57,952 nucleotides of DNA from a virus. Taxonomy: Duplodnaviria > Caudoviricetes. The position numbers were made by a program, and so were the translations under genes. This document shows positions 2,765 through 56,968 of the stretch, in pieces (position 1 is the first letter of the stretch; each line of letters starts with the position of its first letter). The stretch lies in IMG/VR virus record IMGVR_UViG_3300034109_000966, positions 1-57,952 of that record; one strand, given 5' to 3'. A model generated the notes under the pieces. That model ran no database searches. It worked only from the letters and a program-made list of their open reading frames with translations, and was not told the origin of the DNA.

Positions 2765-3424
2765 ATGGTCTACGGTCCTCCACGTCTTGAAGACCTGCCG
2801 TACCGGGAGCGCCTCGTCTACTTACTGGGCGACAGGTCGAAGTACCCGGGTGGTCGCTACCCGAACGAGCAGGACCGTGAACCTGGTTCCACCTTGAAAT
2901 CCATCGACACCGAGGAGCCGGTGTCGCTAGAAGCGCTGGGGCGTCTGGAGTCGAGCATCGAGAGGTCGGGCTTTGACGGCGTCGCGGACTTGGCCTTCAG
3001 GGAGATCAAGGGATTCGGGAGCGTGAAGCCCATGGCGGAGTTCCGGTCCGATGGGTCGATCTATGTCAACGCGGAACTTCTGGTTGACCTCGAAGACTCG
3101 GATGACGACTCTCAGCTGGATGGCATCATCGCGCACGAAGTCTCACACGCGCGGTATTCTACGGTGAAGAAGATGCTGGCGAATGGTTCGGCGCCGAAGT
3201 TCGGCGACCACCTCAACAAGAAGCAAGACGAGCTTCGGAAGACCGGCCGGGACGTCTCTCCGTATGCGAAGGCGTGGTGGGACGCCGGCGCGAGGTATCA
3301 CACGGTCATCGATGAGACTCTCGCCGAAGTCGCCGCGGCAAGAATGTCCGGTAAGTCCGTGCCTGACGTCTGGAGTGAAGCGTACGACTTGATGGTCTCG
3401 GCTGCCAAGGGAGCAGACCAGTGA
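2765..3424 (+). CDS. GDRSKYP-tagged zincin-like metallopeptidase
   Basis: N-terminal LPYRERLVYLLGDRSKYPGGRYPNE; HEVSH (HExxH) and downstream SPYA...DETLAE. Confidence 0.75.
   Translation: MVYGPPRLEDLPYRERLVYLLGDRSKYPGGRYPNEQDREPGSTLKSIDTEEPVSLEALGRLESSIERSGFDGVADLAFREIKGFGSVKPMAEFRSDGSIYVNAELLVDLEDSDDDSQLDGIIAHEVSHARYSTVKKMLANGSAPKFGDHLNKKQDELRKTGRDVSPYAKAWWDAGARYHTVIDETLAEVAAARMSGKSVPDVWSEAYDLMVSAAKGADQ
2795..2869 (+). repeat. Tag peptide copy 1: LPYRERLVYLLGDRSKYPGGRYPNE
   Basis: Direct translation. Confidence 0.95.
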
Positions 3425-4917
3425 GAATCCGCGTCGAAGACCTCAAGACGTTCACGCCATCGCCTGACGGCAAGTACGTCGTTGTCCGCGATGAAGAAGT
3501 GAACGGCATCTTCAAGGTCGGCATGCAGTACGAACTCGGCGATCGCTCGAAGTATCCAGGTGGCAAGTACCCGAACGAAGCGGATGACCCGTTAGCGGGG
3601 GAACCTGCGGGTGTTCATCGGCCCGCCGCCATGAAGCGTGTGATGTCGTATCTCGAGACGGCCGCTGGCGTGAAGCTCAAGCCGCATGGGTCTGTGGGGA
3701 AAGGCGTTGATTCAGGGAACGATTTCGACATCCTGCTTGTGGAACCGTCCGACGAAGAGCTTGCGGCGTTGGAAGATGAAGGACGTCGCGAGGAAGACGA
3801 AGTGAAGGCGAAGTTCGACCGCGGAGAGATTTCTCGCGATCAGATGATGGAGGAGCTTTTCGGCGAGTATGAAGACAAGGTCGACACGGCGCTTGAGAAG
3901 ATCGGGTTCAAGTACGTCAAGACCGCTCGGTGGCTTGGGATCATGGCGCACCGGTACGAGAACGAATCGACGAAGCACGCCATCGAGCTCTGGGAGAAAG
4001 ACCCAGACGACAGCCACTACGGGTTGTCGTACCGAGAGAAGCTGGCGATGATGTTGAACGCGCAGTACCCGCCGAAGGCCGGCGAGGGCACCAGGCGCCT
4101 GATCGACGAAGGGCAGGCCCCAGGTCGCTCTCGGATGCGTGCGCCGACGAAGAAGGACCAGGCGCGGATCAAGGCGCTAGGCGTCCCGCCGGCGTGGACT
4201 GATGTGCGGGTGTCAGAAGACCCGAACGCAGCGCTGCAGGTGACCGGAGTCGACGCCAAGGGCCGCTCGCAGCGCATCTACAGCGCCGAGCACACGGCGC
4301 GTGCCGCGGCGGAGAAGTTTGAGCGCGTGAAGGAGTTTCACAAGACGCTGCCGTCGATACGGAAGGCGGTGTTGGAGGACCTGAAGTCTGGCACGCCGGC
4401 AGACCGCGAGAACGCGGCGGTCCTGTACCTGATCGACCAGACAGGGTTCCGCGTCGGGTCGGACACTGACACCGGTGGAGACGTGCAGGCGTTCGGCGCC
4501 ACGACGCTGCGCCGAGAGCACGTCAAGGTGGCCGGGTCGACTGTATCGTTTTCATTCACGGGCAAGAAGGGTGTCGCGATCGAGAAGTCCGTGACCGACA
4601 CGCGCCTCGCCGGGATGATCCGAGACCGCATGCGTCGCGACAACCAGTTGTTTGAGACGGACGACGCGTCTGTGCGTGGCTATCTGAAGAAGGTCGCGGG
4701 TGATTTCAAGGTGAAGGATTACCGGACCTGGCACGGCACGTCGAAAGCGTTGGCGACGATGAAGAAGATGCCGGCGCCAAAGAACAACGCGGAGTTCAAG
4801 CGGGCGCAGGCAGCGGTCTCGAAGGTCGTCGCGGAGCACCTCGGCAACACGCCGACGGTCGCCAAGGCGTCGTACATCGACCCGTCGGTCTGGTCGAAGT
4901 GGGCAGGTGGCAAATGA
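3421..4917 (+). CDS. GDRSKYP-tagged fusion of a Pol-beta-type nucleotidyltransferase-like domain and a bacterial-type DNA topoisomerase IB
   Basis: HGS...NDFDILL NTase motif; TopIB motifs PPAWTDV, GVDAKGRSQRIY, GFRVG, FTGKKG, KDYRTWHGT, LGNTPTVAKASYIDP. Confidence 0.85.
   Translation: MRIRVEDLKTFTPSPDGKYVVVRDEEVNGIFKVGMQYELGDRSKYPGGKYPNEADDPLAGEPAGVHRPAAMKRVMSYLETAAGVKLKPHGSVGKGVDSGNDFDILLVEPSDEELAALEDEGRREEDEVKAKFDRGEISRDQMMEELFGEYEDKVDTALEKIGFKYVKTARWLGIMAHRYENESTKHAIELWEKDPDDSHYGLSYREKLAMMLNAQYPPKAGEGTRRLIDEGQAPGRSRMRAPTKKDQARIKALGVPPAWTDVRVSEDPNAALQVTGVDAKGRSQRIYSAEHTARAAAEKFERVKEFHKTLPSIRKAVLEDLKSGTPADRENAAVLYLIDQTGFRVGSDTDTGGDVQAFGATTLRREHVKVAGSTVSFSFTGKKGVAIEKSVTDTRLAGMIRDRMRRDNQLFETDDASVRGYLKKVAGDFKVKDYRTWHGTSKALATMKKMPAPKNNAEFKRAQAAVSKVVAEHLGNTPTVAKASYIDPSVWSKWAGGK
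3529..3579 (+). repeat. Tag peptide copy 2: YELGDRSKYPGGKYPNE
   Basis: Direct translation. Confidence 0.95.
4024..4074 (+). repeat. Half copy of tag: LSYREKLAMMLNAQYPP, before the TopIB domain
   Basis: Matches the LSYR(E/D)(R/K)L...L half only. Confidence 0.7.
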
Positions 4918-6251
4918 GCGACGAGAAGCACGATCCGAACGACGAACTCGCGTCCGAGATGGACGAGTTGTTCGAGACCGTCCGGTTCGAAGGGGACGTG
5001 CAGCCGTGGCGCGACGTCGCGGAGACCGATGAGGACCCAGACGACGAGTCGCCGGCCACGGTGTCTCTGGCCGATCGCGTCCACGAAGGGCTGATGGTCG
5101 CGATCCCGGTGCCGACGACGATTGCGACGGCGCTGCAGGTGCTCGACGGCATTGCGCCCGAAGACATGCACCTGACGCTCTGCTACGTCGGCCGCGAACG
5201 TGCGTCCGTGTTGTCGCCGCAGGACTTGATTGACCTGACGTTCGCGGTGGCCACGGTGGTCGAGCGGACGGACCCGTTCGAGGTCCGCCTCGAGCGCCTG
5301 GACCGGTTCCCGGCCTCGGACTCGTCGGACGGCCAGGACGTGATCCACGCGGTTGTGACCGGTGACGCGCTGCTGGAGCTCCGGAAGAAGGTCTACGCCG
5401 CGCTCAAGAAGGCCGGCTCCGAGCCGAAGCACGACTTCGAGTACACGCCGCACATCACGATTCAGTACGTGGCGCCAGGCTCGCAGCATCTGCTTGACGA
5501 GATTCCGCCGATGGTGATGCCGGTGACGTCCGTCGAGATGTTCAAGGTCGGCAAGATCGCGATGATCCCGCTCGGCGTGCAGAACGTGAAAGACGCCGAA
5601 GCGCTGGAGCGCCTCCGCCGCCTGCCGCGCGCCAGCGAACGGGGCGTCGAGTGCGTCCGCACGCGCGACATCTTCGACCATCCGATGTTCGAGGTGAAGG
5701 CCCCGTTGAACCGGAAGACGACGATGAACGTGCTTGAGCACGTCCCGCTCGCCAGCTTGGCGCCGAGCCAGGCGCTGATCCCGGCGCAGGGGTTGGAACG
5801 GTACATCACGAAGCCACGGAAGGACCCGTCGGACATCGCGCGGTTCGAATCGCGCACGGGTCAGGTGCGGTACGTGATTCAGGAAGGTCACACGCGGTTG
5901 GCCGCGGCCAAGCTCCGACAGCCCGACGCATCGATCGAGTCGCGCGTCTGGATGTTCGAAGAGGACGACCGTGGCGACTGGAAGCCGGTCGAGCGCGGCA
6001 TGCACAAGCGCGCGAAGTTGAACCTGTCGGCCGACAAGGAAGACGTCGATGACGGCCGGTGGGTCACGAATCCGTATGAAGACATCGTGATCGTCGAGCG
6101 TTCGGAGTCAGGACACAGCCTGACGCTGGACGCGATCGCACGAGGACGTGCACGCGTCGCCGCCGGCGAGAACATCGACGATGTCATCGAAGACCTGATT
6201 GCCGAGGACTTGCTCGAGAAGGGGCTCGTGCCAGGAGTCTCGAATGCTTAG
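4914..6251 (+). CDS. 2H phosphoesterase (2'-5' RNA ligase-like) fused to a ParB/Srx-like domain
   Basis: Two HxT motifs (MHLTL, PHITI); VIQEGHTRLAAA ParB-like motif; ATGA overlap with upstream stop. Confidence 0.75.
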   Translation: MSDEKHDPNDELASEMDELFETVRFEGDVQPWRDVAETDEDPDDESPATVSLADRVHEGLMVAIPVPTTIATALQVLDGIAPEDMHLTLCYVGRERASVLSPQDLIDLTFAVATVVERTDPFEVRLERLDRFPASDSSDGQDVIHAVVTGDALLELRKKVYAALKKAGSEPKHDFEYTPHITIQYVAPGSQHLLDEIPPMVMPVTSVEMFKVGKIAMIPLGVQNVKDAEALERLRRLPRASERGVECVRTRDIFDHPMFEVKAPLNRKTTMNVLEHVPLASLAPSQALIPAQGLERYITKPRKDPSDIARFESRTGQVRYVIQEGHTRLAAAKLRQPDASIESRVWMFEEDDRGDWKPVERGMHKRAKLNLSADKEDVDDGRWVTNPYEDIVIVERSESGHSLTLDAIARGRARVAAGENIDDVIEDLIAEDLLEKGLVPGVSNA

Positions 6252-9200
6252 CTACCGCGACCGTATCCGATACGAGCTCGGCGACCGTTCCAAGTACCCG
6301 GACGGAAAGTACCCCGGAGAAGCCGGGTATCACGGCACGTCTATCGAAGCGGCACGTAAGATCAAGACCGAAGGGCTGAAGCTGTCGAAGACGCCGCATA
6401 ACATGCCTGGCGTCTGGGTCGCGCACAAAGAGTCGGACGCCCTGAGTTACGCGGTTGGTCAGGGACGCGGCATCGGCAGCAAGCACGTTGTTCCCGACGA
6501 CGACGACTTGATCGCGCTCGTTGTGGTACGGCCCTCAGCGGCTTCGCTATTCACGCGCTACCCTGGTCAAGGCGCGTCAGTCTCGATGAAGGATGTACCA
6601 GCCAAGCATATCGAAGAAGTACGAGTCTACCGCGCTGGCGATGTGCGGAGATGGCAGGACCGTGGCGAGAAGAGCAAGCTGAAGTATACGAACTTGTCAG
6701 ACGAGTCAGGCTACACGTACGTCTCGATCTTGTTGTCGAAAGACGAGGAAGTAGTTAGTCTAGGCGATCGTTCGAAGTACCCGGGTGGGCTGTATCCGAA
6801 CGAACAGGACGAGATCGAGTCGAACGGCGTCGACTTCAGCAGCCTGAAGCGAGTCGGTGAGGCGCAGGGCTCGAACCCGGGTGGCTTCTACGAAGACGCC
6901 GCTGGCGATAAGTGGTACGTCAAAGACTACAAGAACCCGGACCAAGGCGCCGCGGAACACGTCTCGAATGCGATCTACCGTGCCGTGGGCATCGACGTGC
7001 CCGTCTCGGTGCTCGGCGAGGGCCCGGACCACGGCAAGTACGCCAGCCAGATTCGCGAGGGCAAGATTCTCGCGAGGGCGGGTCTGACCGAGGAGACCGC
7101 GAACAAGGTGCTTGACGGCTTCGCGGCCGACGTGCTGACGATGAACTGGGACGCGGTCGGCACAGGCCACGACAACGTGCTCGTCGAGGCAGGGACCGGT
7201 ACGCCGGTGCGCATCGATCAGGGCGGGACGCTCACGTTCCGTGCGCAGGGAGCGCCGAAGCCGGCGGACTTGTTGAAGGGGATTGGCGAGTGGGAGTCGC
7301 TGCACTCGCAGAACTCGTACTACCGCGCGGTCTTCACCCGCGCGGGGCTCAAGGGCCCGGACGACCCCAAGTTCGCGAGCCGCGTGAAGGCGCAGGTCTC
7401 GAAGATCGTGAAAGCGCGTCCGGCGGGTGGTTGGTCGAAAGTCGTGAACAGGTTCGCGCCTTCGACGAAAGACGCGGTGAAGAAGACGTGGGCGGAAATG
7501 CTCGACGCGCGCACCGAGGCGCTGGCGCGGAAGGTCGGCATCGATCTGTCGATGAGCTATCGGGACAAGCTCGTCTTCCTGCTCGGCGATCGGTCGAAGT
7601 ATCCAGACGGGAAGTATCCGAACGAACAGCAGAGCGGACCCAAGCCGCCGGCGAAGCGCTACGCCGTCAAGCAGCGGCCTGACGGAAAGTGGCAGATTTA
7701 CGACCGCGTCTTCACGTACAAGGACAAGGACTCGCCGCAGGGACCAGGCCACGTGAAGGCCACGAAGGAAGAAGCGCTCGCGAAGGCCGCGCACATGGAG
7801 GCGAAGTTCGGCGCCGGTCATCCGGAGTGGGAGAAGATTGCGGAGCAGATCGCGGTGTTCAACCAGTCTGGACTGCACGGCAGCGAGTGGAAGAAGGCGA
7901 ACATCTGGAAGGCGAAGATTCTTGCCAAGGAGATGAAGGCGACGTCTCCTTCGGACGCGGCGTCGGTGGGGATGACGCCAGATCAGTTCATGGCGGCGAC
8001 GTCGAACATCGCGAAGGCCGAATCGTCGCTCAAGGAGGCGCTGCTGTCTCCGGCGCCAGATGGCTGGCCGATTGGTGACGACGTGATGCGCATAGACGGC
8101 CAGAAGTACCCAGCGGTCGTGAATAAGGCGTACGAAAAGTGGATGTCCGGTCTTAACAACGACGAATTGGAAGCTGTCGAGAGATACACGGCGAACGGCT
8201 ACGACTCGTGGAACGCGTATCTTCGAATGACTCAACCGAAGATGGGCACGATCGTGAATCCTGAAACGCTTCCCACGAAAACGAACACCCTGCAGCGAGC
8301 GCTTCACCGGGCGCCGTCGCCGCCGCCGCCTGAGTTGGTCTGGAGAAAGACGGGAGGCGCGAGCTTCTACGATGGCTTGTCGTCTGGCGACACGATCAAG
8401 TTGACGGGATTCACGAGCGCGTCGATTTCGGTCGGCACATGGTCTGGCAGCACCGTGTTGGAAATCTTGCCTGTCGCTGGTGCGTATGTCGACCCGATCT
8501 CGTCGAGCAAGGGAGAGAAGGAGTACCTGCTCCCGCACGCCGCGAGGTACAAGGTCGTAGGACGAAAAGAACTCAAGCTGGGCTACTCGAAGAAGACGGT
8601 CGTGCAGCTGAAGATGCTCGACAAGGGTCCGGACGTCGTCGTCCCGGAGAAGACGGTGAAGCTCTCGTACCGTGAGCGCCTTGTGTTTATGCTCGGCGAC
8701 CGCTCGAAGTATCCAGGCGGGAAGTATCCGAACGAAGAAGGGGCGTCTGAGTCGCCGGTAGGCGACGAGGAGTGGGACCTCGAGGGGTCCGGCGTGATGA
8801 ACATGCCGGACATCAGCGATGTGTCGTTCCCGACGATGATCGGCGCCGTCGACCCGGTGAATCCCAAGAAGAAGTCGCGGAAGAAGCGCGTCCCGTATCA
8901 GGGCGTCATGCTCGGCCGTCGGCCGACGGAGTTCGAGTCGGAAGTCTTGTCGCTGTCAGCGATCCCGAAGCGGTTCGACAGTGAGGTTGAACGTGCGTCC
9001 GCACAAGTTGTCGAGCTCCGTCTGCAGTACGCACGCGACCAGAACCTGCCGTCGCTCGATCAGGGGCTGTCGGTGGTGCTCTCAAGCGCGCAGGACCGCA
9101 TCGCGCGGTACGGCGCCGCGGAGCTCCGGAACGAATGCCGGCGGCAGTACTTGCCGATCTCGCTGTGCGATGAATCGGACGCGCGCTTCGACGGCTTGTC

Positions 9201-9699
9201 CACGGCCGTGGCGTCTTCGGCGATCGAGACGGCGAAGATGTTGTCGACCGAGTGGGCGTCGGAAGTGACGCGGGTCGGCTCACGCACGCGCAGGGCTCGT
9301 CGCCCCGATGCGCTGCTGGAGCTCGCAACGCCTCGCGCGGACTGGGGCGTGAAGAGCGCGGTGCGTCGGTTGCTGAACGAGAGTTTCGCGTTGGCGCGTC
9401 GGACGCATATGATGTCGATCGCGTCGTCATGTGAGCGCTCGAACGTGATCTCGCTGAAGGTCGTCGACGCCGACAAGGCGGAGGAGTTGGTGGACTACGT
9501 GATCCAGTCCGCGGTGATGGACACGTCGACCTGCGATCCGTGCGCGGATGCGGATGGTCTCACGTTCGAGTACGACAGCGACGAGATGATCGAGCATCAG
9601 CCGCCGTACTTCCGGTGCTTGGGTGGCGATCACTGCCGGTGCGTGCAGGTGTACGTGTTGAAGGACGGTGGTTCATGGGTGATGCGAGGCGCTCCGTAA
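6244..9699 (+). CDS. Polyvalent MuF-type minor head protein: H-Y-type ART, PI3/4-kinase/HipA-like kinase, unknown domain plus VIP2/Alt-like ART, C-terminal MuF; four GDRSKYP tags
   Basis: CCAGGAG RBS before ATG 6244; YHGTS..GVWVA..ALSYA; GSNPGGFY..WYVK..NWDAVG..DNV..RIDQGG; RYT..Y..NAYLR..VWR..GFTSAS..EKEYLLP; AVMDTSTCDPC..PPY..HCRC; lies shortly upstream of the head protease gene. Confidence 0.8.
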   Translation: MLSYRDRIRYELGDRSKYPDGKYPGEAGYHGTSIEAARKIKTEGLKLSKTPHNMPGVWVAHKESDALSYAVGQGRGIGSKHVVPDDDDLIALVVVRPSAASLFTRYPGQGASVSMKDVPAKHIEEVRVYRAGDVRRWQDRGEKSKLKYTNLSDESGYTYVSILLSKDEEVVSLGDRSKYPGGLYPNEQDEIESNGVDFSSLKRVGEAQGSNPGGFYEDAAGDKWYVKDYKNPDQGAAEHVSNAIYRAVGIDVPVSVLGEGPDHGKYASQIREGKILARAGLTEETANKVLDGFAADVLTMNWDAVGTGHDNVLVEAGTGTPVRIDQGGTLTFRAQGAPKPADLLKGIGEWESLHSQNSYYRAVFTRAGLKGPDDPKFASRVKAQVSKIVKARPAGGWSKVVNRFAPSTKDAVKKTWAEMLDARTEALARKVGIDLSMSYRDKLVFLLGDRSKYPDGKYPNEQQSGPKPPAKRYAVKQRPDGKWQIYDRVFTYKDKDSPQGPGHVKATKEEALAKAAHMEAKFGAGHPEWEKIAEQIAVFNQSGLHGSEWKKANIWKAKILAKEMKATSPSDAASVGMTPDQFMAATSNIAKAESSLKEALLSPAPDGWPIGDDVMRIDGQKYPAVVNKAYEKWMSGLNNDELEAVERYTANGYDSWNAYLRMTQPKMGTIVNPETLPTKTNTLQRALHRAPSPPPPELVWRKTGGASFYDGLSSGDTIKLTGFTSASISVGTWSGSTVLEILPVAGAYVDPISSSKGEKEYLLPHAARYKVVGRKELKLGYSKKTVVQLKMLDKGPDVVVPEKTVKLSYRERLVFMLGDRSKYPGGKYPNEEGASESPVGDEEWDLEGSGVMNMPDISDVSFPTMIGAVDPVNPKKKSRKKRVPYQGVMLGRRPTEFESEVLSLSAIPKRFDSEVERASAQVVELRLQYARDQNLPSLDQGLSVVLSSAQDRIARYGAAELRNECRRQYLPISLCDESDARFDGLSTAVASSAIETAKMLSTEWASEVTRVGSRTRRARRPDALLELATPRADWGVKSAVRRLLNESFALARRTHMMSIASSCERSNVISLKVVDADKAEELVDYVIQSAVMDTSTCDPCADADGLTFEYDSDEMIEHQPPYFRCLGGDHCRCVQVYVLKDGGSWVMRGAP
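6247..6321 (+). repeat. Tag peptide copy 3: LSYRDRIRYELGDRSKYPDGKYPGE
   Basis: Direct translation. Confidence 0.95.
6751..6804 (+). repeat. Tag peptide copy 4: VVSLGDRSKYPGGLYPNE
   Basis: Direct translation. Confidence 0.95.
7546..7626 (+). repeat. Tag peptide copy 5: LSMSYRDKLVFLLGDRSKYPDGKYPNE
   Basis: Direct translation. Confidence 0.95.
8662..8736 (+). repeat. Tag peptide copy 6: LSYRERLVFMLGDRSKYPGGKYPNE
   Basis: Direct translation. Confidence 0.95.
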
Positions 9700-9995
9700 T
9701 GAAGTGGCTGAAAGCGATGCTCGGGTGGGATCGTGACGCGGTGCCAGCGTCGACGGAGCATCTCGTGGAGCGCGTCGACGTCTTTGTCGTGGCTCGCTGT
9801 CCGTGCGGATCGGAACACGAGCACCAGTTGGCGCTGCACAGCGTCTCGCTGTGCAGGCGCTGCGGGCAGGAGATCGCGATCCGATCGCTGCAGTACGTTC
9901 GGCAGGATTCGGCAATTCCGCGAACAAGTGTGCATGTGGGACCGGTCGCGTCACGCGAGGCGCTCCGACGCCGGGCCACCACGGGCGTCCACTGA
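9699..9995 (+). CDS. Small zinc-ribbon protein
   Basis: TAATG coupling to the MuF gene; CPCG...CRRCG. Confidence 0.6.
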   Translation: MKWLKAMLGWDRDAVPASTEHLVERVDVFVVARCPCGSEHEHQLALHSVSLCRRCGQEIAIRSLQYVRQDSAIPRTSVHVGPVASREALRRRATTGVH

Positions 9996-10207
9996 TGCGC
10001 TGCTCGTTCTGCCGTCTGCGCCGTGTCCGCGTCGTGCTGTCCGGCGACCGCTGGTTGTGGTTGTTCGCGTGCACGAAATGCGCGCGCAAGCACGAATTCG
10101 AGACGGATTACCCGCCCGCCAGCATCGCGGAACTCCATAGAATCAACACGTTACGGAAGGGTATTGCAAGGCGAACAATGATTTCGCACAGTACCATCCG
10201 TGCCTGA
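9995..10207 (+). CDS. Small zinc-ribbon protein
   Basis: TGATG coupling; CSFC...CTKC. Confidence 0.5.
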   Translation: MRCSFCRLRRVRVVLSGDRWLWLFACTKCARKHEFETDYPPASIAELHRINTLRKGIARRTMISHSTIRA

Positions 10208-11939
10208 AACCTTCGACAAGGTCGTCATCTCGTGGCCGAAGTCGCTGATCAACGCGTCTGAAGTCCAGAAGTCCGGCCCGCGCCGGTCCTGGATTCAGTT
10301 GGCGAGGACGGGCTCGTTCACGAGCAACCGGTACGGGAAGTTCAGCATCACGCGAGACGACCTCTCGCAGATGCTCCACAACTTCAACAACATCACGCCG
10401 AAGAAGCCGACTGAGCTCCCGATCGACTACGACCATCTGTCGATGGACCCGAAGAAGCCTGGGGACGGCATCGCCGCGGGATGGATGAAGTCGCTCGAGC
10501 TTCGTGGCGACGAACTGTGGGCGGAAGTCGAGTGGACGCCAGACGGTGCGAAGCGCGTCGACGCCGGCGAGTACCGCTTCATCAGCCCGAGCTTCGTCAA
10601 GGACCACACGCACAAGGACGGGAAGAAGATCGGCACGACGCTGCTCGCCGCGGCGGTGACGAACCACCCGTTCCTGGAAGGCATGAAGTCGCTCACGCTG
10701 AGCAACGACTCGGTCTTCGGATCGCTCGGCGTCTCCGATGACGCCGAAGTCGTGAACCTGTCGGCGCAGATCGGTCAGCGCGTCATGATCGCCCCGGGGC
10801 ACGCGCGCACGGCCGACGAGATGGGCAGCACGTTCGAGATCGTGGATGCCATCGGCGAAGGCGAAGACTGCTTTGTGGCGCTGAAGGACCTGAACGGCGT
10901 GCTCCACAAGTGGTTCAAGGCGACGGAACTGCTGCCGTCGTCCGCGACGCCTGCGTCTCCGCTCGCGCCGAACCTAGTCGCATCGCCGGGGACGCCAGCC
11001 GCGCTGCAGCCAGGCTCCGGACTCCCGGCTGACGCTGCCGCTGGTGCGCCAGGAGCCGTAGACCCCGCTGCAGACCCTGTGGCTGCGGCCATGGCGTCCG
11101 GCGACCCGGCTGAGATGGCGGCGGCGATCGAGGAAGACCCTGAAGCCGCGGCGGCCGCGATGGCGGAGGACCCGGAAGCGCTGCCGATGGACCCGGACGC
11201 GCTGGCGGAGGACGAACTCGCTGGTGAGACCGACGAGTTTGCCGGCGACGAAGCCGATGCCGAAGACGAGGGCTTCGAAGAAGAAGTGGCGTCGGATGAA
11301 GAAACCACGGAAGACGACGAAGAACCAACTTCGTTCCTCCGCAAGCGGGCCATGGCCGCCAAACAGAAGGGGACAGTGAACATGCGATTCCAGCTCAGGA
11401 ACGACAAGAACGAAGTGATCGAGGTGACGGCCGAGCAGCTTGCGGCCGCCGGCATCCAGGTGGTTCCGGAAGGCGCCACCGTGATCGGCAAGAAAGACCT
11501 CAACGACCTCCGCAGCAAGGTGACGAACCTGTCGTCGACCGTCGAAGAGCTCCGGAAGTCGAACGAGGAGTCGCTCGCGGCGTCGCGTCAGGCGCAGATG
11601 CAGGCTGACCTCGACCGCCTCTCGGGCGAAGGCTACATCACGAAGCCTCAGCGCGAGTTCGCGCTCTCGACGTGGGGCGAAGCCTCGGAAGCGGACATGA
11701 AGGCGTTCGGCGCGTGGGCGAAGACGTTCACGAAGCCGGTCGTGCACCTGAACCGCGAGCACGGCATCGGCGGCGACGCCGACGTCGAATCGCGTGAGGC
11801 GTCGGCGGGTTCGGAGCTCATCGATCTCGCGAACGACCTGGCGGACACGAAGAACCTGTCGATGCGCGACGCGATGATCGAGGCGAGCCGGCAGCGGCCG
11901 GACCTGGCGCTCGCGTACCGCGAGCACTACGCCGACTAG
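10200..11939 (+). CDS. Mu gpI-like prohead protease/scaffold protein
   Basis: WIQLARTG, PIDYDH, AAGWM, LWAEVEWT, EYRFISPSF, AAVTNHPFLEGM; acidic linker and coiled-coil C-terminal scaffold. Confidence 0.9.
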   Translation: MPETFDKVVISWPKSLINASEVQKSGPRRSWIQLARTGSFTSNRYGKFSITRDDLSQMLHNFNNITPKKPTELPIDYDHLSMDPKKPGDGIAAGWMKSLELRGDELWAEVEWTPDGAKRVDAGEYRFISPSFVKDHTHKDGKKIGTTLLAAAVTNHPFLEGMKSLTLSNDSVFGSLGVSDDAEVVNLSAQIGQRVMIAPGHARTADEMGSTFEIVDAIGEGEDCFVALKDLNGVLHKWFKATELLPSSATPASPLAPNLVASPGTPAALQPGSGLPADAAAGAPGAVDPAADPVAAAMASGDPAEMAAAIEEDPEAAAAAMAEDPEALPMDPDALAEDELAGETDEFAGDEADAEDEGFEEEVASDEETTEDDEEPTSFLRKRAMAAKQKGTVNMRFQLRNDKNEVIEVTAEQLAAAGIQVVPEGATVIGKKDLNDLRSKVTNLSSTVEELRKSNEESLAASRQAQMQADLDRLSGEGYITKPQREFALSTWGEASEADMKAFGAWAKTFTKPVVHLNREHGIGGDADVESREASAGSELIDLANDLADTKNLSMRDAMIEASRQRPDLALAYREHYAD

Positions 11940-11987
11940 TCGGCAGACGTTTCCCACGACCCAGTCTGAGAGCTACGAGGAGCACAC

Positions 11988-12389
11988 ATGAGGATCAACC
12001 GTCCGGGAATGGACACGACGATCGAAGCGTCGGCGGACCTTTCCACGCATCAGTTCAAGTTCGTGATCGGCGCGGCGGCGTCCGGCAACTCGCAGCTGGC
12101 CCGTGTGAACGTCTCCGGCGCCAACGGCCGGTCGTTCGGCATTCTGCAGAACAAGCCTTCGGCGGCGGGTCTGGGCGCGGTCGTGCGTCTCGCCGGCACG
12201 TCGAAGCTCGTCGTGGACGGCAGCGGCTCGGCCATCTCGGTGGGTAGCCCGCTGAAGGCGGACGCGTCGGGACGCGGTGTCGTCGCCGGCACGGACAAGG
12301 ACAAGGTCGGCGCCATCGCGCTCGAAGCGAGCTCGGCGGCGAACGATGTGATCGAAGCGCTGATCTGCATCTACGACATCGCGGTGTAG
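11988..12389 (+). CDS. Capsid decoration/cement protein (DUF2190-like)
   Basis: GILQNKP, ADASGR, GAIALEA pattern; between protease and capsid genes; GAGGAG RBS. Confidence 0.8.
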   Translation: MRINRPGMDTTIEASADLSTHQFKFVIGAAASGNSQLARVNVSGANGRSFGILQNKPSAAGLGAVVRLAGTSKLVVDGSGSAISVGSPLKADASGRGVVAGTDKDKVGAIALEASSAANDVIEALICIYDIAV

Positions 12390-12489
12390 TCGTCGTCTAG
12401 CGGCGGCGGGCACGGGCGCAAGTACGTAGGGGCCGTAGGCCAGCGCCCGGAGGCCACCGTCACAACCAGTCTTCTAGGAAAGAAACACG

Positions 12490-13413
12490 ATGCCGCTGAT
12501 CACCTCAGTGAAGTTCGACCAGCTGCTGACGAACATCTCGCTGCAGTTCGCCGCTGCGCCGGACGGCTACTTGGCCGACATGGTGCTGCCGTCGGTGCCT
12601 GTCGCGAAGGAGTCAGCTGCGTACTGGGTCTACGACCGTTCTCGGATGGACGCCCCGGACTCGAAGCGCGCGCCGCGCAGCGAGTACAACCGGATCGACT
12701 GGAACGTGTCGACCGACACGTACCTGTGCGAGCAGTACGGTCTCGAGGGCGAGATCGACGACCAGGAGCGCAAGAACTCCGCGGCGCCGCTCGACCTCGA
12801 TGTCGACACGACGGAAATCGTGACCGACATGGTGCTGAACGGCCGCGAGAAGCGCGTTGCCGACCTCGTGCTCGCGACGGCGAACATCTCGCAGAACACG
12901 ACGCTCGCCGGCGTGAACCAGTGGAGCGACCCGGGCAGCGACCCGCTGAACGACGTGCGGATCGCGCGCGTCGCGATCTACACCGGGGCGCCGGGCTACA
13001 CGCCGAACACGATGGTGATCGGCTACCAGGTGTTCGAAGCGCTGAAGCAGCACCCGGACGTCAAGGAAATCGTGAAGTACACGGAGCGTGCGATCATCAC
13101 GCGCCAGATTCTCGCCGCCGTGTTCGAGGTGGACGAGCTCCTGGTCGGCAAGGTGACCCGCCGCACGTCGAAGGAAGGCCAGACCGACGCCTTCGGCGAC
13201 GTGTGGGGCAAGGACGCCCTGCTGTACTTCCGCGAGATGCGTCCGTCGCTGAAGCGCGCGAGCTTCGGCTACCAGATGCGTCAGGAAGACCTCAAGGTGT
13301 TCCGCTACCGTGAGGACAAGCGCGACACGGACGTCATCCGCGTCTCGGAGAAGCAGGACGAGAAGCTCGTCGCCGAGAAGCTGGCGTACCTGTTCAAGGC
13401 AGCGGTGGCCTAG
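12490..13413 (+). CDS. Major capsid protein
   Basis: DQLLTNIS, AD.VLP.VPV, E.RVA.LV, QWSD..SDP, PNTMVIG, WGKDALL, YLFKAAVA; size and position. Confidence 0.88.
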   Translation: MPLITSVKFDQLLTNISLQFAAAPDGYLADMVLPSVPVAKESAAYWVYDRSRMDAPDSKRAPRSEYNRIDWNVSTDTYLCEQYGLEGEIDDQERKNSAAPLDLDVDTTEIVTDMVLNGREKRVADLVLATANISQNTTLAGVNQWSDPGSDPLNDVRIARVAIYTGAPGYTPNTMVIGYQVFEALKQHPDVKEIVKYTERAIITRQILAAVFEVDELLVGKVTRRTSKEGQTDAFGDVWGKDALLYFREMRPSLKRASFGYQMRQEDLKVFRYREDKRDTDVIRVSEKQDEKLVAEKLAYLFKAAVA

Positions 13414-13802
13414 TGCCGCGCTGTAAGGTCCTGACCAATCTCCGCGCGAACGAAGGCACGTTCGTGCTTGGCGACATCGCGGAGCTTGAGCAGGCCACCA
13501 TCGATGCACTTCCCGAAGGGACGGTGCGCCTCCTCGCAGAGGCTCCGCCGCCTCTTCGGACCGATGGTCCGACGCTGGAGGAGTACGTGTCGGCGGGCAA
13601 CGAACCGGCGTCGTATCCGCCGGCCGGGTATACGGAGCGAGAGTCCGAGGGACTGACGGCGTTCCGTGAACAGCAGAAGGCGGACGAACTCGAAGCGGCG
13701 AAGGCGCGTGTGGCGTCGTTGCTAGGCACGAAGTCGGAGCCCGGGACGCCTGTCGAACCTGTAGCCCCGCCGGCACCGACGAAGGACAGCAAGAAGAAGT
13801 AG
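13413..13802 (+). CDS. Hypothetical head-associated protein
   Basis: TAGTG coupling to the capsid gene. Confidence 0.6.
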   Translation: MPRCKVLTNLRANEGTFVLGDIAELEQATIDALPEGTVRLLAEAPPPLRTDGPTLEEYVSAGNEPASYPPAGYTERESEGLTAFREQQKADELEAAKARVASLLGTKSEPGTPVEPVAPPAPTKDSKKK

Positions 13803-13805
13803 CCC

Positions 13806-14267
13806 ATGCCCTACGCCACCATCGATGACGTGCAGCGACGGATGCCGCAGTTTCAACTGCTGCCGACGTCGAAGCCGTCCATCGAATCGGCGCAGGTGTT
13901 CCTCGACGATTGCCACGCGCACTTCGACGCGGCGATGTCGAACTTGGGCTACGTGATCCCGCTCACGGGTAAGCGAGCGCTCTCGCAAGCCCGTGAAATC
14001 GTGTCTCAGGGCACGATCGCGCGCATCTTGTACGCGCGCGGCGCGGCCTTGGGCACGGACGCGGCCTTCCAGAGCGCTGACCGTGCGCAGAAGCAGTACG
14101 ACGACGCACTGAAGGCGCTCGCGGACCCGCGGTCTCCCGCAGAACTGTCGGATGCGGCCCGGACCGATGATCAGACGGAGAAGCCAGGCAACGAGCTTGG
14201 CGGTCTGCTGGTCGACGAAGACGGGTACGACATCGAACCGCGCATCACCATGAGCACGGATTTCTGA
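13806..14267 (+). CDS. Head-tail adaptor (Mu gp36-like)
   Basis: MPYATIDDV start, GYVIPL, YDDALKAL; synteny. Confidence 0.75.
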   Translation: MPYATIDDVQRRMPQFQLLPTSKPSIESAQVFLDDCHAHFDAAMSNLGYVIPLTGKRALSQAREIVSQGTIARILYARGAALGTDAAFQSADRAQKQYDDALKALADPRSPAELSDAARTDDQTEKPGNELGGLLVDEDGYDIEPRITMSTDF

Positions 14268-14770
14268 TGGCGACGGTGCTGTCGTTCAACGTCGAAGGTG
14301 GTGACCGGACGTTGCAGGGGTTGGCGGCGCTGGACACGGCGCTCAAGGACCTTCGCCCGTTCTGGCGCGACGTCTTTGCCCCGAAGTACTTCGGCGTCGT
14401 GCAGGACCTGTTCGCGACGGGCGGGCGGGCGCGCGGCGGCGGTGGACGCTTCAAGTCTGGTGCGTGGGCGCCGTTGTCGCCGGCGTATCGCGAGTGGAAG
14501 AAGAAGCACTTCCCCGGGCAGCCGATCTTGGTGCGGTCCGGTGATTTGCGGGAGTCGGTGCGGTGGGATGGCGCGCGTCTCGGCGCCGGCGGCCAGTTCG
14601 ATGCGCAGCCGGGATTCGTGATCGCGGGCACGACCATCCCGTACGGCAAGCACCACCAGAACGGCGCCGGGAAGATGCCGAAGCGCGAGTTCTTGCCGAG
14701 CCCGGACCCTGCGGTCTTCGCTCCGTTGCTGGCCGCGTGGCTGATTCGCAACACGAGTGGGGTGAAGTGA
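14267..14770 (+). CDS. Virion morphogenesis/tail completion protein (Mu gpG-like)
   Basis: WAPLSPAY..K, ILVRSGDLRES, YGKHHQNG, MPKREFL. Confidence 0.8.
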   Translation: MATVLSFNVEGGDRTLQGLAALDTALKDLRPFWRDVFAPKYFGVVQDLFATGGRARGGGGRFKSGAWAPLSPAYREWKKKHFPGQPILVRSGDLRESVRWDGARLGAGGQFDAQPGFVIAGTTIPYGKHHQNGAGKMPKREFLPSPDPAVFAPLLAAWLIRNTSGVK

Positions 14771-15244
14771 GTGTTCTTCCACGTCACGCAGGCGAAGCGC
14801 AAGCTGAAGCAGCGCCTCAGCGACGAGTTGCCAAGGCTGTTGTCGTACGCAGACGGGATGGCGGCCGACGGCATCTACACGCCGCCGCCGTTCGAGATTT
14901 ACACGACGGACAAGGCGGACCTCGGCGGCTACCCGTCACTCGAGCTCATCGTGACGGACTCGACGCCCAGGAGCGACTCGTACGCGTCGATCTACCGGCA
15001 CCGGATCGTCATCGGCGTTACCGTCGGCGGGGACACCGAAGAGACGCTCTCGGCCCAGGTCGAGCGGTATCTCTGGTGCTTGCGCCAGGTCGCGAAGGAC
15101 TCGCACCTGACGCCGTCTGAAGGGACTGTTCCGATCGACGTCGGAGGCGAACAGTACACGCCGCTGCAGCAGCGGCCAGAGACCGTAGAATCACCGTTCG
15201 TGAAGGGTGCGTTCATCGAAGTCTTCATCACGACGGTTGAGTAG
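14771..15244 (+). CDS. Putative tail terminator protein
   Basis: Size and position between neck and tail tube genes. Confidence 0.55.
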   Translation: MFFHVTQAKRKLKQRLSDELPRLLSYADGMAADGIYTPPPFEIYTTDKADLGGYPSLELIVTDSTPRSDSYASIYRHRIVIGVTVGGDTEETLSAQVERYLWCLRQVAKDSHLTPSEGTVPIDVGGEQYTPLQQRPETVESPFVKGAFIEVFITTVE

Positions 15245-15255
15245 GGGAGACGCCA

Positions 15256-15597
15256 ATGGCTGTTCTGAGTGTTCAGGTTCCGACGACGGCAGGCCCGACG
15301 TTCACGGCTGCGGCCGCGGCGGTCGGTGGTGACAGCTTCGTCAACACGGGCGTCGAGTTCTTCTACGTGAAGAACGGCAGCGGTGGCGCACTCACCGTGA
15401 CCTTCGACTCGCCGGGTACGTGCAGCTTTGGCCTCGCGGCCAGCGCGTCGCACGACCTCGCGGTATCGGTGGGCGCCGGCGTGGAGAAGATCATCGGGCC
15501 GTTCCCGCGCGATCGCTTCAGTGACGCGAACGGCTCGGTGCAGGTGACGTACTCTGGCGTGACGTCGCTGACGGTCGCCGTGCTGAGGCAGTCGTAG
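15256..15597 (+). CDS. Hypothetical virion protein
   Basis: GGAG RBS; GGDSFVNTG...IGPFP..F pattern seen in phage structural genes. Confidence 0.65.
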   Translation: MAVLSVQVPTTAGPTFTAAAAAVGGDSFVNTGVEFFYVKNGSGGALTVTFDSPGTCSFGLAASASHDLAVSVGAGVEKIIGPFPRDRFSDANGSVQVTYSGVTSLTVAVLRQS

Positions 15598-15600
15598 GCT

Positions 15601-15918
15601 ATGGCGTTCTACAAGGTGCGCCCGGGCCAGCTGCTCGGTCATCACGGTCGAACGCTCGAAGAGGGCGCCATCGTCGAGCTCCCGCCCCATGTCGGGCTGG
15701 ACGTCGCCGAGAAGGTGGAGCCGTGCACGGACACCGGCGAGCCGCTGGGGCACTTGTCCGCCGAAGCCCTAGTCGTCGCGCAGGCACGGAAGCACGAGCG
15801 GGAATCGATCATCGAGCAGCAGATCGCGGAGTTGGAAGCGCGTCTGGCGGATGCTAAGCAGCGGCTGGCTGACGAAAAGGTCACGTCGGTTCCGCCAGTG
15901 AAGAAGACGACCAAGTAA
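15601..15918 (+). CDS. Hypothetical protein with C-terminal coiled coil
   Basis: Packed ORF in the structural operon. Confidence 0.6.
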   Translation: MAFYKVRPGQLLGHHGRTLEEGAIVELPPHVGLDVAEKVEPCTDTGEPLGHLSAEALVVAQARKHERESIIEQQIAELEARLADAKQRLADEKVTSVPPVKKTTK

Positions 15919-15931
15919 CGGAGACCACGCA

Positions 15932-16510
15932 ATGGCGCTCAGCAACGCGAACATTCACATCGGTGCAGCGAGGATCTTCCTCGGCGTGACGAACCCGGCC
16001 TCGGGTACGCCGCCGACTCTGATGACGCACACCGACGGCGTGCCGGCCACCGGCACGGAAGTCGGCTACACGGAAGGCCCGACGAAGTTCACCTACCGGC
16101 AGAACAAGCAGGAGGTGACCGCCGAGCAGTCGCTGAACCCGGTCGACGTCTTCGTCACGGACGAAGAGATCATGATCGAGTTCACGGCCATGGAGCACGT
16201 GTACAACACGCTCAAGGCTGCGTTCGACAACGTCGGCACGGTGGACGACGGGTCCAAGTCGCTGTTCTACGGCGGCGATGGCTCGGGCCTGGTGAACGTG
16301 ACGACGCAGTCGGTGATGCTCTCAAGCCGCCGGCGCGACGCCACGACCAAGTTCGAAATCCTCGTGATCTACAAGGTCTACAACATGCAGGGCATGGAAA
16401 TTCCGTATGCCCGCACCGAAGCGGCCAAGTACACGATTCAGCTGAAGGGGCTCGTCGACACGGCGCGGAACGCCGGCGACCGTCTCTTCCAGTGGCACCG
16501 GGAAAAGTAG
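15932..16510 (+). CDS. Major tail (tube) protein
   Basis: NIHIGAARIF, VGYTEGPT.FTY pattern; lies upstream of chaperone and tape measure genes. Confidence 0.8.
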   Translation: MALSNANIHIGAARIFLGVTNPASGTPPTLMTHTDGVPATGTEVGYTEGPTKFTYRQNKQEVTAEQSLNPVDVFVTDEEIMIEFTAMEHVYNTLKAAFDNVGTVDDGSKSLFYGGDGSGLVNVTTQSVMLSSRRRDATTKFEILVIYKVYNMQGMEIPYARTEAAKYTIQLKGLVDTARNAGDRLFQWHREK

Positions 16511-16511
16511 C

Positions 16512-17096
16512 ATGCGCTCTGACGCGCTCTCCGCGCTGATCCGGAAGCGGTTCGCTGTGCTCTTTGAGCTCGGCGACCGCTCCAAGTACCCGGGCGGGAA
16601 GTATCCGAGCGAAGAAGGCGGATCAGAGAGCTCGGGCGCTAAGGCTGCTCCACTTCCTGGCGATGACGATTTCGACTACGACGCCGACGACGCCTACGAT
16701 GAGGCGATGGCGAAAGAAGACGACAGGGATAACGCTCGTCGTCAGTCTGAGCGCGACGAAATCGCTCGCACGGAGAAGCACTACGCAGAGAAGCGAGCCA
16801 AGCTCGACAAAGACGAATCCGGAGAGACGGACGTCGAGAACGCGCTTCGAGATGGGCAGTCACGCGAAGAATTCTTGAGCGCGGTCACCGCAAACAGGCG
16901 TTTCTCCAGTATTTCAGACACGCTGCAGTCACGCGGCTACAAGTCCGGGAAGCCGAAGACCGTGCGTAACGCGACCACGGCGATCTTCAAGAAGAAGGGC
17001 AGCGACGATGTGTCGGTGCAAGTCATCTCTCCGAGCCCGCTCGACGCCAGCCGTGGGCAGCACTCGACCATCGTTCGTACGACAGTGATGAAGTAG
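16512..17096 (+). CDS. GDRSKYP-tagged protein of unknown function inserted in the tail operon
   Basis: LFELGDRSKYPGGKYPSEE near the N terminus; acidic/charged middle; small basic C-terminal domain. Confidence 0.75.
   Translation: MRSDALSALIRKRFAVLFELGDRSKYPGGKYPSEEGGSESSGAKAAPLPGDDDFDYDADDAYDEAMAKEDDRDNARRQSERDEIARTEKHYAEKRAKLDKDESGETDVENALRDGQSREEFLSAVTANRRFSSISDTLQSRGYKSGKPKTVRNATTAIFKKKGSDDVSVQVISPSPLDASRGQHSTIVRTTVMK
16563..16613 (+). repeat. Tag peptide copy 7: FELGDRSKYPGGKYPSE
   Basis: Direct translation. Confidence 0.95.
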
Positions 17097-33482: not shown

Positions 33483-33782
33483 ATGATGGTCTTCAAGTTC
33501 ACAGACACGGACAGGAAAACAGGCAAGCTCGCGGACCTCGACATCATCTTCACGGACGGCGACTTGCGAGGGCTGAAGCTCGTCGGGTTCGCCATCTGGG
33601 AGCGTGCCAACGGGAAGCCGAGCGTCACGTTTCCCGCGCGGCAGTACAAGGTCGGCGGCGAAAGTCGCTCGTACGCGTTGTTGCGTCCGGCAGAGAGCGT
33701 CGACGCGTCGAACGCGCTGCGAGACGCCATTCTGCAGTCGTACGACGCCTACGTGGCGGAGAAGAATGCCGCCGATGGTTAG
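33483..33782 (+). CDS. SpoVG-like nucleic-acid-binding protein
   Basis: KLAD.DI.F...L.L.GF.IWE...VTFPAR...LRDAIL..Y; AGGAG RBS. Confidence 0.55.
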   Translation: MMVFKFTDTDRKTGKLADLDIIFTDGDLRGLKLVGFAIWERANGKPSVTFPARQYKVGGESRSYALLRPAESVDASNALRDAILQSYDAYVAEKNAADG

Positions 33783-35001: not shown

Positions 35002-35215
35002 TTCGGTCGCCGACGCGACGGACGCCGTCGACGAAATGGAACGTGCGGTCTTCCACTTGCGCTCCGCCACAGCGGCGGCAGCGTTGGCGGATGCGCCGAT
35101 GCTGCTGAAGAAGTTGAAAGGGATCAAGAAGTCTGCCGCTGGCGCATTGAACCACGCGCGCCATCGGCTGTCTCGGACGAAGCGCAACCGCCCGATGAAT
35201 CGTCGAGGTGCCTGA
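34982..35215 (+). CDS. Hypothetical protein
   Basis: Packed ORF. Confidence 0.5.
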   Translation: MGRLKADSVADATDAVDEMERAVFHLRSATAAAALADAPMLLKKLKGIKKSAAGALNHARHRLSRTKRNRPMNRRGA

Positions 35216-35544
35216 TGGAAACCCAGGAACGAGAACTCCGCGCTGCAGCGTTGCTGCGGCACAACGCCGTGCTGAAGACCAGGTCTCCGAAAGAGACGTC
35301 TGCGCATCTGGGCTCGTACCAGCTGGAGCATGAAGACTTCAGCTTGTTCGGCCATGACTCGGATGAACTGCTCGTGTTGGGCTGCGAGATGCTCGGGATC
35401 GTCGGCTACTTCGTCTACATGCGTCGCGTCACGACGTACCGCGTGTTCGAATCCAGCGCCGAAAACGCGCAGGACGCGTTCTTCGATGACAACGCGGTCG
35501 AAATCGATTCTGAGACAGTTGCCTGCGACGTGGAAACCGAATAG
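35215..35544 (+). CDS. Hypothetical protein
   Basis: GAGGT RBS; TGATG coupling. Confidence 0.55.
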   Translation: METQERELRAAALLRHNAVLKTRSPKETSAHLGSYQLEHEDFSLFGHDSDELLVLGCEMLGIVGYFVYMRRVTTYRVFESSAENAQDAFFDDNAVEIDSETVACDVETE

Positions 35545-35640
35545 CGGTGCTAGACTGACCGGGCTGGGCCTGACGCTACCCGGTACGCCGCGTTCCGTGC
35601 AATTCCGCACGGGCGCGGCGTTCGTCGTTGTGGAGCTTGT

Positions 35641-52556: not shown

Positions 52557-52565
52557 GAGGTAGAC

Positions 52566-53514: not shown

Positions 53515-53540
53515 ACGGAAACGTCCGCTCCCACTATACT
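53512..53540 (+). promoter_or_regulatory. Promoter with palindromic operator candidate
   Basis: TAGACG-17-TATACT; contains TAGACGGAAACGTCCG. Confidence 0.8.
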
Positions 53541-53563
53541 AACGGCCTCACCAAGGAGGGTCT

Positions 53564-54451: not shown

Positions 54452-54645
54452 ATGACGCAAGAGCCATGAGTAAGTTCTGCGCTGGCGTCTGCGGAACGTG
54501 CCCAGCGTGTCTAGCCGCAGCGAAAGACGTTGAAGCGCTCGACCGAGTGCTTGCGACTCTGTCCGACGAAGATGTCGCGAGCCTGCTCCGGAAAGACGAA
54601 GACGACCCACGTTCGTACGCGCTCGATGCGAAAGGGAGACCATGA
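54448..54645 (+). CDS. Small cysteine-rich protein
   Basis: CAGVCGTCPAC; ATGA overlap. Confidence 0.45.
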   Translation: MNDARAMSKFCAGVCGTCPACLAAAKDVEALDRVLATLSDEDVASLLRKDEDDPRSYALDAKGRP

Positions 54646-56515: not shown

Positions 56516-56519
56516 TCGT

Positions 56520-56966: not shown

Positions 56967-56968
56967 CG

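Follow-up and report, generated by a model that had tools for sequence, protein, structure and literature searches.

A short peptide cassette heads effector modules in the late genes of a tailed phage and is a candidate leader for their loading or release

Results

Seven copies of a peptide core in four genes

We describe here a short peptide that recurs at the edges of protein domains in the late genes of a tailed phage (Duplodnaviria; Caudoviricetes), represented by the IMG/VR record IMGVR_UViG_3300034109_000966. The window, i.e. the whole stretch of DNA that was analysed, is the entire record of 57,952 bases, which is estimated to be 48% complete. Six-frame translation of the whole window revealed seven copies of a 15-residue core, LGDRSKYP[GD]G[KRL]YP[NGS]E (hereafter type D), all encoded on the plus strand and distributed over four open reading frames (ORFs). 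Their Gly codons lie at 2828, 3538, 6280, 6763, 7585, 8695 and 16572 and at no other sites, as a preliminary description made from the DNA sequence had reported. A degenerate DNA pattern for GDRSKYP matched seven times in the window and not once in any of 100 dinucleotide-preserving shuffles, and a 37-position profile of the copies, searched against the whole 57,952-base record, returned exactly the same seven sites with E values from 1.6e-18 to 2.8e-23. The four tagged genes are:

2765..3424, plus strand: tagged HExxH protein (hereafter P0001), a candidate processing metallopeptidase; one copy
3421..4917, plus strand: tagged protein with an unassigned N-terminal domain and a TopIB domain (Pfam 1.9e-31); one copy and a half copy
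6244..9699, plus strand: polyvalent protein with a C-terminal MuF module, ATG at 6244 and an alternative TTG start at 6199; four copies
16512..17096, plus strand: tagged 194-residue protein without a known family, in the tail gene cluster directly after the major tail protein gene; one copy

Within these genes the copies are placed as follows:

2798..2869, plus strand: tag copy 1, helix PYRERLVYL and core LGDRSKYPGGRYPNE; residues 12-35 of the 219-residue HExxH (zincin-like) protein
3535..3579, plus strand: tag copy 2, core LGDRSKYPGGKYPNE without a SYRExL helix; near the N-terminus of the 498-residue protein that ends in TopIB
4027..4086, plus strand: half copy SYREKLAMMLNAQYPPKAGE, helix SYREKLAMML and decayed core NAQYPPKAGE; immediately before the TopIB domain
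6250..6321, plus strand: tag copy 3, helix SYRDRIRYE and core LGDRSKYPDGKYPGE; extreme N-terminus of the polyvalent protein, ending four residues upstream of a domain with an HGT motif
6760..6804, plus strand: tag copy 4, core LGDRSKYPGGLYPNE without a SYRExL helix; after the first domain of the polyvalent protein
7555..7626, plus strand: tag copy 5, helix SYRDKLVFL and core LGDRSKYPDGKYPNE; ahead of an unassigned stretch and the ADPrib_exo_Tox domain (residues 642-808)
8665..8736, plus strand: tag copy 6, helix SYRERLVFM and core LGDRSKYPGGKYPNE; ahead of the MuF module, whose start reads NMPDISDVSFPTMIGA
16569..16613, plus strand: tag copy 7, core LGDRSKYPGGKYPSE; residues 20-34 of the 194-residue protein, followed by an acidic low-complexity tail

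An amphipathic helix, [SP]YR[DE][KR][LI], precedes four of the copies and the half copy. A relaxed pattern for this helix has only seven matches in the six frames of the window, five of them at the junctions, one off-frame and one at the C-terminus of the protease-scaffold protein introduced below. The layout of the cassette is that of a helix followed by a conserved core of aromatic, Gly and Pro residues and then, in most copies, by a flexible stretch rich in Gly, Ser and acidic residues before the cargo; in two copies only 2-4 residues separate the cassette from the HGT motif of the next domain. The half copy proved to be real and starts at 4027, and a fuller copy, FGHRHLYPKNQYPNE, is found ahead of the TopIB domain of another protein, P0010.

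Within the 45-nt cores the codon differs in 119 of the 283 codon pairs that encode the same residue, and the mean nucleotide identity between copies is 0.80 in the core compared with 0.30 and 0.37 in the 45-nt flanks. Because synonymous sites differ between the copies, it is the peptide and not the DNA that is conserved, as had been claimed before, and the peptide is the level at which selection operates. We dropped the idea that the copies arose as a DNA repeat or by gene conversion in the recent past, synonymous sites being near saturated.

The cargo behind the copies is diverse, and the domains proposed for it in the preliminary description fared differently. TopIB and the VIP2-like ADP-ribosyltransferase (ART) were confirmed, the latter by a match of the polyvalent protein to ADPrib_exo_Tox (1.1e-13, VIP2/C3-like ART). 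The MuF module and the zincin are present with weaker matches (Phage_Mu_F 0.001 and phrog_595 1.8e-10 for MuF; an HExxH motif and Pfam M48 at 0.0028, below the cut-off, for the zincin), whereas the nucleotidyltransferase, the first ART and the kinase found no support in Pfam or PDB sequence searches. Two further regions of the polyvalent protein are delimited by tags, one of them common to phage proteins annotated as ART or hypothetical, and the domain after copy 4 is common to T5-like and Gordonia phage proteins. For P0001, metalloprotease-like structural neighbours were found in the Atlas at TM 0.5-0.55. Its AlphaFold2 model from the single sequence has a mean pLDDT of 42.9 and is unusable except for a helix at residues 13-20, and no relatives of similar length were found.

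Rarity and distribution of the core

All seven copies lie within 2.8-16.6 kb, among head and tail genes. Six-frame translation and the profile found no copy in the remaining ~40 kb, where replication and repair genes are located, which agrees with the earlier statement that the tag is absent from replication genes.

A profile search of the kind suggested in the preliminary description was carried out exhaustively against 1.84 billion representative proteins and gave 17 matches at E <= 0.001. Four of these are the window's own, one is a Cys-rich repeat protein judged to be false, and the other 12 are foreign clusters, all phage-like and with varied cargo (MuF, TopIB, ParB-like, GNAT). The foreign carriers comprise three MuF proteins 35-49% identical to the MuF module of the window, a GNAT/TopIB polyprotein whose TopIB is 52% identical to that of the window, polyproteins with ParB-like domains (~50% identical) and a family of small proteins. 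Taken together there are 25 type-D copies in 16 proteins. All 25 are followed by at least 47 residues, in line with the proposed position at the N-terminal edge of a unit, and all 25 have Glu at the last core position. In seven of the 16 proteins the core begins within the first 40 residues, so that there is nothing upstream from which it could separate the cargo.

Other searches added little to this set. A word-based search of 5.8 billion proteins returned the window's own protein only (the product of the polyvalent gene, recorded on a contig of 75,160 bases), scans of IMG/VR with the tag profile, P0007 and P0012 gave no further type-D copies, and megablast of the tagged region against phage records gave no matches. 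One locus was found in 185,579 species genomes and two in 241 million metagenome records; these three are taken as chance matches because each reads LGDRSKYPG and then continues into unrelated sequence. The type-D core is very rare, and the proteins that carry it all belong to late structural modules in phages whose head module is of the Mu type.

Other cores at the same junctions in relatives

Three further genes of the window are needed for the comparison with other phages:

4899..6251, plus strand: untagged 2H phosphoesterase and DdrB/ParB-like protein, whose stop overlaps the start of the polyvalent gene
10200..11939, plus strand: prohead protease (Mu-like_Pro, PF10123, 8.4e-27) with a small beta-barrel, a low-complexity linker and a scaffold-like C-terminal domain
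12490..13413, plus strand: major capsid protein, lambda-like, the marker for finding relatives

In IMG/VR, 20 loci have a capsid protein with 28-83% identity to that of the window, and five of these relatives (G001-G005), with capsid proteins 80-82% and protease-scaffold proteins 43-53% identical to the window's, were taken for full examination. The type-D core is absent from all five, the profile giving a weak match to the helix part only. Behind a YR[DE]KL helix these relatives carry other cores, namely L[DE]WDE..HPR...G.F, LGD[VTL][EP]GH.F.GNQ[WY] and GSGNFGHAGRPG, and in the portion of G001 examined the junctions consist of the helix only. A second core type, NP.G.NQWGGP..W..E, stands beside type D within one protein in both P0007 and P0008. 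Within the clade the SYRExL helix is shared and the 15-residue core varies.

G004 (122 kb, CheckV 100%) has about 15 junctions by our count; they span 22.6-49.5 kb, and the protease and capsid genes lie downstream of them all. Its Mu-type portal (Portal_Mu 9.7e-36) has a junction motif at residue 556 of 643, and the other carriers are a portal-adjacent gene, a 2254-residue polyprotein with five motifs, an ART-PolyVal protein and further polyproteins. One of its proteins, orf469, combines the helix and another motif with HExxH and is analogous to P0001. The small type-D proteins P0012, P0015, P0016 and P0018 have a common N-terminal domain, and P0016 aligns (E 1e-12) with G004 orf400, which is encoded directly after the Mu-type portal gene; in this alignment FALGDRSKYPDGLYPGE stands opposite FFLGDAEGHPFRGNQW. 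Here one core has been replaced by another at an orthologous site.

The ParB-like domain has its own gene in the window (4899..6251), and its counterparts in P0007 and P0008, which are ~50% identical, are fused just upstream of the junction helix. The split or fusion of genes thus falls exactly at the cassette. With different motifs at one site of orthologues and gene boundaries exactly at the cassette, the sequences support the earlier suggestion that the cassette is a portable label.

More distant comparisons were negative. The Arthrobacter phage Waltz, a distant relative by its capsid protein, has no repeated peptide in its head block, the 45-residue GNFGHAGRPG cassette gave no tblastn matches in phage records, and inspection by eye found no such motif in Mu gp29, gp30 and gpI. 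As a separate observation, a 702-residue ORF upstream of the MuF gene of one relative (L011, 2812-4917) consists of about 10 tandem repeats of ~55 residues each (QGT...LGWF.P.D) and has no family match.

A widespread positional analogue

One of the alternative cores occurs in many other phages. A DNA pattern for WDE..HPR...G.F matched at least 108 stretches in IMG/VR, and the seven loci checked have 43-56% G+C. Among the matches listed there are 127 instances in 108 loci; for complete ORFs among these listed matches, at least 60 residues follow the motif in 87 of 88 instances, 34 of 88 lie at most 70 residues from the upstream stop and one of 88 lies in the last 40 residues, and two or more copies are present in eight of the 115 motif-bearing ORFs listed, complete or cut.

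Pfam was run on 10 ORFs chosen out of these 115. All five chosen ORFs of 628-760 residues with the motif near the C-terminus are Phage_portal_3 portals, in which an acidic linker and the motif are followed by PBECR1 in three, by LPD3 in one and by nothing assigned in one. Both chosen ORFs starting with MNTQQRAIL consist of the motif, LPD3 and DUF2213, the DUF2213 part falling into the PHROGs class of head maturation proteases; in the DUF2213 lineages the gene order is portal, MuF, protease, capsid. The remaining three of the 10 have no head-protein family. The Pfam models begin after the motif (LPD3 at residue 59 with the motif at 26; PBECR1 at 550 with the motif at 494). Positionally equivalent motifs outside the window thus link portal, MuF and prohead protease to effector domains. 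The arrangement also occurs in a cultured phage: gene 4 of Pseudomonas phage Orisa03 (L143, 2270-4381; 704 residues), annotated as hypothetical, codes for a portal that continues through an acidic linker and FDENKHPRSDDGKF into an ART-like domain (YRG, STS, EKE). The tag of the window belongs, as a rare variant, to a family of junction motifs that can replace one another and is not a stand-alone invention of this phage.

One of the three ORFs without a head family lies on an unrelated viral contig (L054, 955-5016) and encodes a 1354-residue polyprotein with five copies of [helix]DAEWDES.HPR..DGKFGPGG. The copies precede different regions, for which there are weak matches of the kinase, GNAT and ParB/Noc-like types, and the layout is that of the window's polyvalent protein with a different core.

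Gene setting in the window

The polyvalent gene is followed by the genes for the protease-scaffold protein, a decoration protein and the major capsid protein. The prohead protease is of the Mu-I type, as had been predicted, and the protein that contains it is a candidate partner of the tags. Its C-terminus carries one further feature:

11913..11930, plus strand: AYREHY, resembling the junction helix, four residues from the C-terminus of the protease-scaffold protein

The end of the protein, ...ALAYREHYAD, resembles SYRE[KR]L, and the corresponding ends in relatives (...EAYRERFASADA and ...EAYRDQFM...) are partly conserved. The likeness may be due to chance, or the cargo may mimic the tail of the scaffold. 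In the same protein a conserved five-stranded barrel of ~60 residues is encoded at 10743-10952 (AlphaFold2 pLDDT 78); in Foldseek it resembles KOW, Tudor and SH3-like barrels only weakly (best E 0.015, TM 0.55-0.62). The barrel is a possible peptide-binding module.

The untagged protein at 4899-6251 matches 2_5_RNA_ligase2 (4.1e-14) and, weakly, Acb1 (4.8e-4). Upstream of the effector block, two proteins are encoded in the region 1039-2762. The first has 470 residues and structural neighbours of the fibre or beta-helix kind but lacks a portal signature; the second is BppU_N-like (9.6e-7) and 104 residues long. The corresponding place in G004, between the portal and the polyproteins, is taken by a collagen-repeat protein (1486 residues) and an fn3 protein (805 residues). 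The right 30 kb of the window contain Ku, ligase, SbcCD and SSB genes and no tag; specifically, the regions 33604-37887 and 51684-57797 encode SbcD-like and SbcC-like proteins, a Ku-like end-binding protein, an ATP-dependent DNA ligase and SSB. The combination of Ku and ligase suggests a phage-borne end-joining pair.

Discussion

Comparison with known systems

Short peptides are known from other systems in which enzymes are sorted or exchanged. Encapsulin cargo-loading peptides, which make direct contact with the shell protein, usually sit at the C-terminus. They resemble what we propose here in that a short peptide on a flexible tether brings diverse enzymes into an HK97-fold shell; in contrast to them, the cassette always stands ahead of its cargo and is not a terminal peptide of this kind. 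Boundary motifs precede the variable toxin domains of polymorphic toxins and mark the exchange of modules. The cassette is similarly a conserved short motif where variable effector modules swap, but it differs from them by its occurrence in phage head modules, by the many repeats per protein and by conservation that is confined to the peptide. The Mu portal may likewise undergo processing at its C-terminal end, for which no literature source was found.

A further likeness, in layout, is to the capsid-targeting sequence (CTS) of phage T4. According to the account in PMC9026906, the first 10 residues of the T4 internal protein IPIII are sufficient for incorporation into the head, and separate residues serve targeting and cleavage by the prohead protease. 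The CTS, like the cassette of the window, is a short N-terminal leader on otherwise unrelated proteins, which in T4 are head-internal; as described there (PMC9026906), it can be transferred to foreign cargo and carries the signals for targeting as well as those for prohead-protease cleavage. Glu is invariably the last residue of the window's core, and in T4 a Glu at position 10 is important when the CTS is processed, a likeness that is only suggestive. The differences are considerable: the cassette measures ~15-26 residues and not 10, it is found at every polyprotein junction besides the N-termini, it exists with several alternative cores, and it belongs to a siphovirus-type genome with a Mu-I protease (PF10123) and a lambda/Mu-like head, whereas the T4 protease is gp21.

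The protein at 6244-9699 corresponds to the polyvalent proteins of Iyer et al. 2017 (PMC5512222) and to the MuF toxins (PMC5576092), which in the text of these papers are multi-effector polypeptides encoded beside head genes, with ART, 2H, DdrB-like ParB, GNAT and PBECR domains and with MuF or portal fusions, all of which recur among the phage proteins compared here. It has at least two effector-type domains, lies among head genes, ends in MuF and has relatives with a Mu-type portal upstream. That a metallopeptidase (zincin-like) cuts polyvalent proteins into units has been proposed in the text of PMC5512222. Both papers define domains, and their main texts mention no recurrent junction peptide; the MuF system is likewise listed without such a motif in the accessible text of PMC3482391, which sets out the general framework of polymorphic toxins. 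No Pfam or NCBIfam model covers the junction motifs and no description of them was found in the searchable literature, searches with the motif strings included and supplementary alignments being outside this scope, so within these sources the earlier impression that the motif was not previously described holds. Polyvalent proteins, the T4 leader and effectors attached to MuF or portal are already known; what appears new, within these sources, is the recurrent, exchangeable peptide that heads each module.

Proposed role of the cassette

We tentatively propose, at somewhat less than an even chance, that the cassette is a leader for the loading and/or release of effector modules. The core, usually with a helix before it, would head each effector module carried inside the phage head and mark the N-terminal boundary of that module. 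In the prohead it would be read as a signal for incorporation of the module, for its proteolytic release, or for both, the reader being either the prohead protease of Mu-I type or the tagged HExxH peptidase encoded by the same phage, and the released, separately folded enzymes would then leave with the DNA. Different placements of the cassette favour different parts of this scheme. An effector fused to the portal must be cut off if it is to exit the capsid, and the cassette is the only conserved element of the linker, which favours proteolytic release. Where a free-standing protein begins with the cassette, there are no domains for it to separate, which favours recruitment or a propeptide role. 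The recurrence of a tagged HExxH protein (P0001 and G004 orf469) fits the processing of polyvalent proteins by a metallopeptidase as put forward in the text of PMC5512222.

Several points weigh against a leader of this kind. Location in the virion, binding and cleavage of the cassette and the nature of the cutting enzyme are all things that we infer. The 2H/ParB-like protein of the same gene block carries no tag, and one tagged gene (16512-17096) lies in the tail cluster rather than the head cluster. The window contains no portal or terminase gene, given its estimated completeness, and the portal argument comes from relatives. No covarying receptor was found, and the cores differ between phages despite 80-82% identical capsid proteins and closely similar protease domains; moreover, a single genome or even a single protein can contain several core types, which argues against a simple picture of one tag and one receptor. 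WDE..HPR occurs with two prohead-protease families of Pfam, Mu-like_Pro (assigned by Pfam for the gene of the window and by alignment for its G004 homologue) and DUF2213 (in other lineages). Neither this nor the G+C range of the motif is easily reconciled with a site that a single protease recognises. Finally, comparison of the type-D and WDE..HPR profiles by hhalign aligned only the helix, with a probability of 1.4%. The comparison thus finds no homology between the cores, and their relation is therefore positional.

As an alternative, the cassette might do no more than dock, i.e. it would bind a repeated component of the prohead interior (scaffold, shell or portal) and tether the cargo, as a cargo-loading peptide does in encapsulins, without any cleavage. 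The helix, the conserved aromatic/Gly/Pro core and the stretch before the cargo that is flexible in most copies would suit such a peptide, as would the seven proteins that begin with the cassette and the stand-alone tagged proteins, which have no MuF or portal domain to bring them in; the helix-like AYREHY end of the protease-scaffold protein, partly conserved in relatives, and its small SH3/Tudor/KOW-like barrel could be part of the receiving side. Effectors fused to portal or MuF are already tethered and would need release instead, and a pure docking peptide would not be expected to avoid the C-terminus, where no type-D cassette and, among the matches listed, only one of 88 WDE..HPR instances (in the last 40 residues) was found. 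Several core types per genome also stand alongside a conserved capsid protein. We regard docking without cleavage as improbable. A function after ejection appears no more probable. In this case the cassette would be a short linear motif read in the infected cell: it might bind a conserved host factor, assist the passage of each module through the tail and its refolding, or be the cut site of the co-injected HExxH peptidase, active in the host cytoplasm only. The retention of WDE..HPR across 43-56% G+C and two protease families would indicate a partner that is not lineage-specific, the tagged HExxH protein recurs, and processing after injection is an option discussed for the metallopeptidase domains of polyvalent proteins in the text of PMC5512222. 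Against this, close relatives have quite different cores, where a conserved target in the host would lead one to expect similar ones, and an effector fused to the portal needs release before ejection.

The extensive shuffling seen here, with the same domains reordered, separate or fused and the cassette always at the edge, could also have left the cassette as a passive boundary element, a spacer or conserved edge without a partner of its own, comparable to the boundary motifs of polymorphic toxins. We consider this very unlikely: fifteen residues remain nearly invariant despite near-saturated synonymous change, the core is conserved in 12 foreign clusters, a DNA recombination site would conserve the DNA, and a spacer would need no invariant G, R, Y, YP and E. 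Ribosome-skipping peptides, autocleavage by Asn cyclisation, isopeptide tags and type VII secretion signals were considered and dropped, as no defining residues of these are conserved across the copies.

The leader reading could be extended to portal-MuF-protease phages in general, in the form of a modular leader-peptide code, for which we hold out a lesser chance and which must be called doubtful. Interchangeable cassettes of 15-30 residues would then signal the loading of modules into the prohead and their cutting loose, whether a module is joined to portal, MuF or prohead protease, forms part of a polyprotein or stands free. The core types of such a code would be WDE..HPR...G.F, LGD..GH.F.GNQ[WY], GNFGHAGRPG and NP.G.NQWGGP, with LGDRSKYPGGKYPNE of the window as a new and rare word.

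Significance

To our knowledge, neither the entry of minor injected proteins into siphovirus and Mu/SPP1-type heads nor the maturation of polyvalent proteins is known in detail, T4 being the only case where such knowledge exists. The window is the cleanest case that we have seen, with seven near-identical copies ahead of unrelated domains, and the wider survey points to cultured phages that are suited to a direct test, such as Pseudomonas phage Orisa03. If the cassette is indeed a leader, the processing proposed for polyvalent proteins would become testable at defined sites, and a portable tag for packaging foreign proteins in phage capsids would be at hand. A leader that can be read from sequence would further make injected effectors, anti-defence enzymes included, predictable from genomes and metagenomes.

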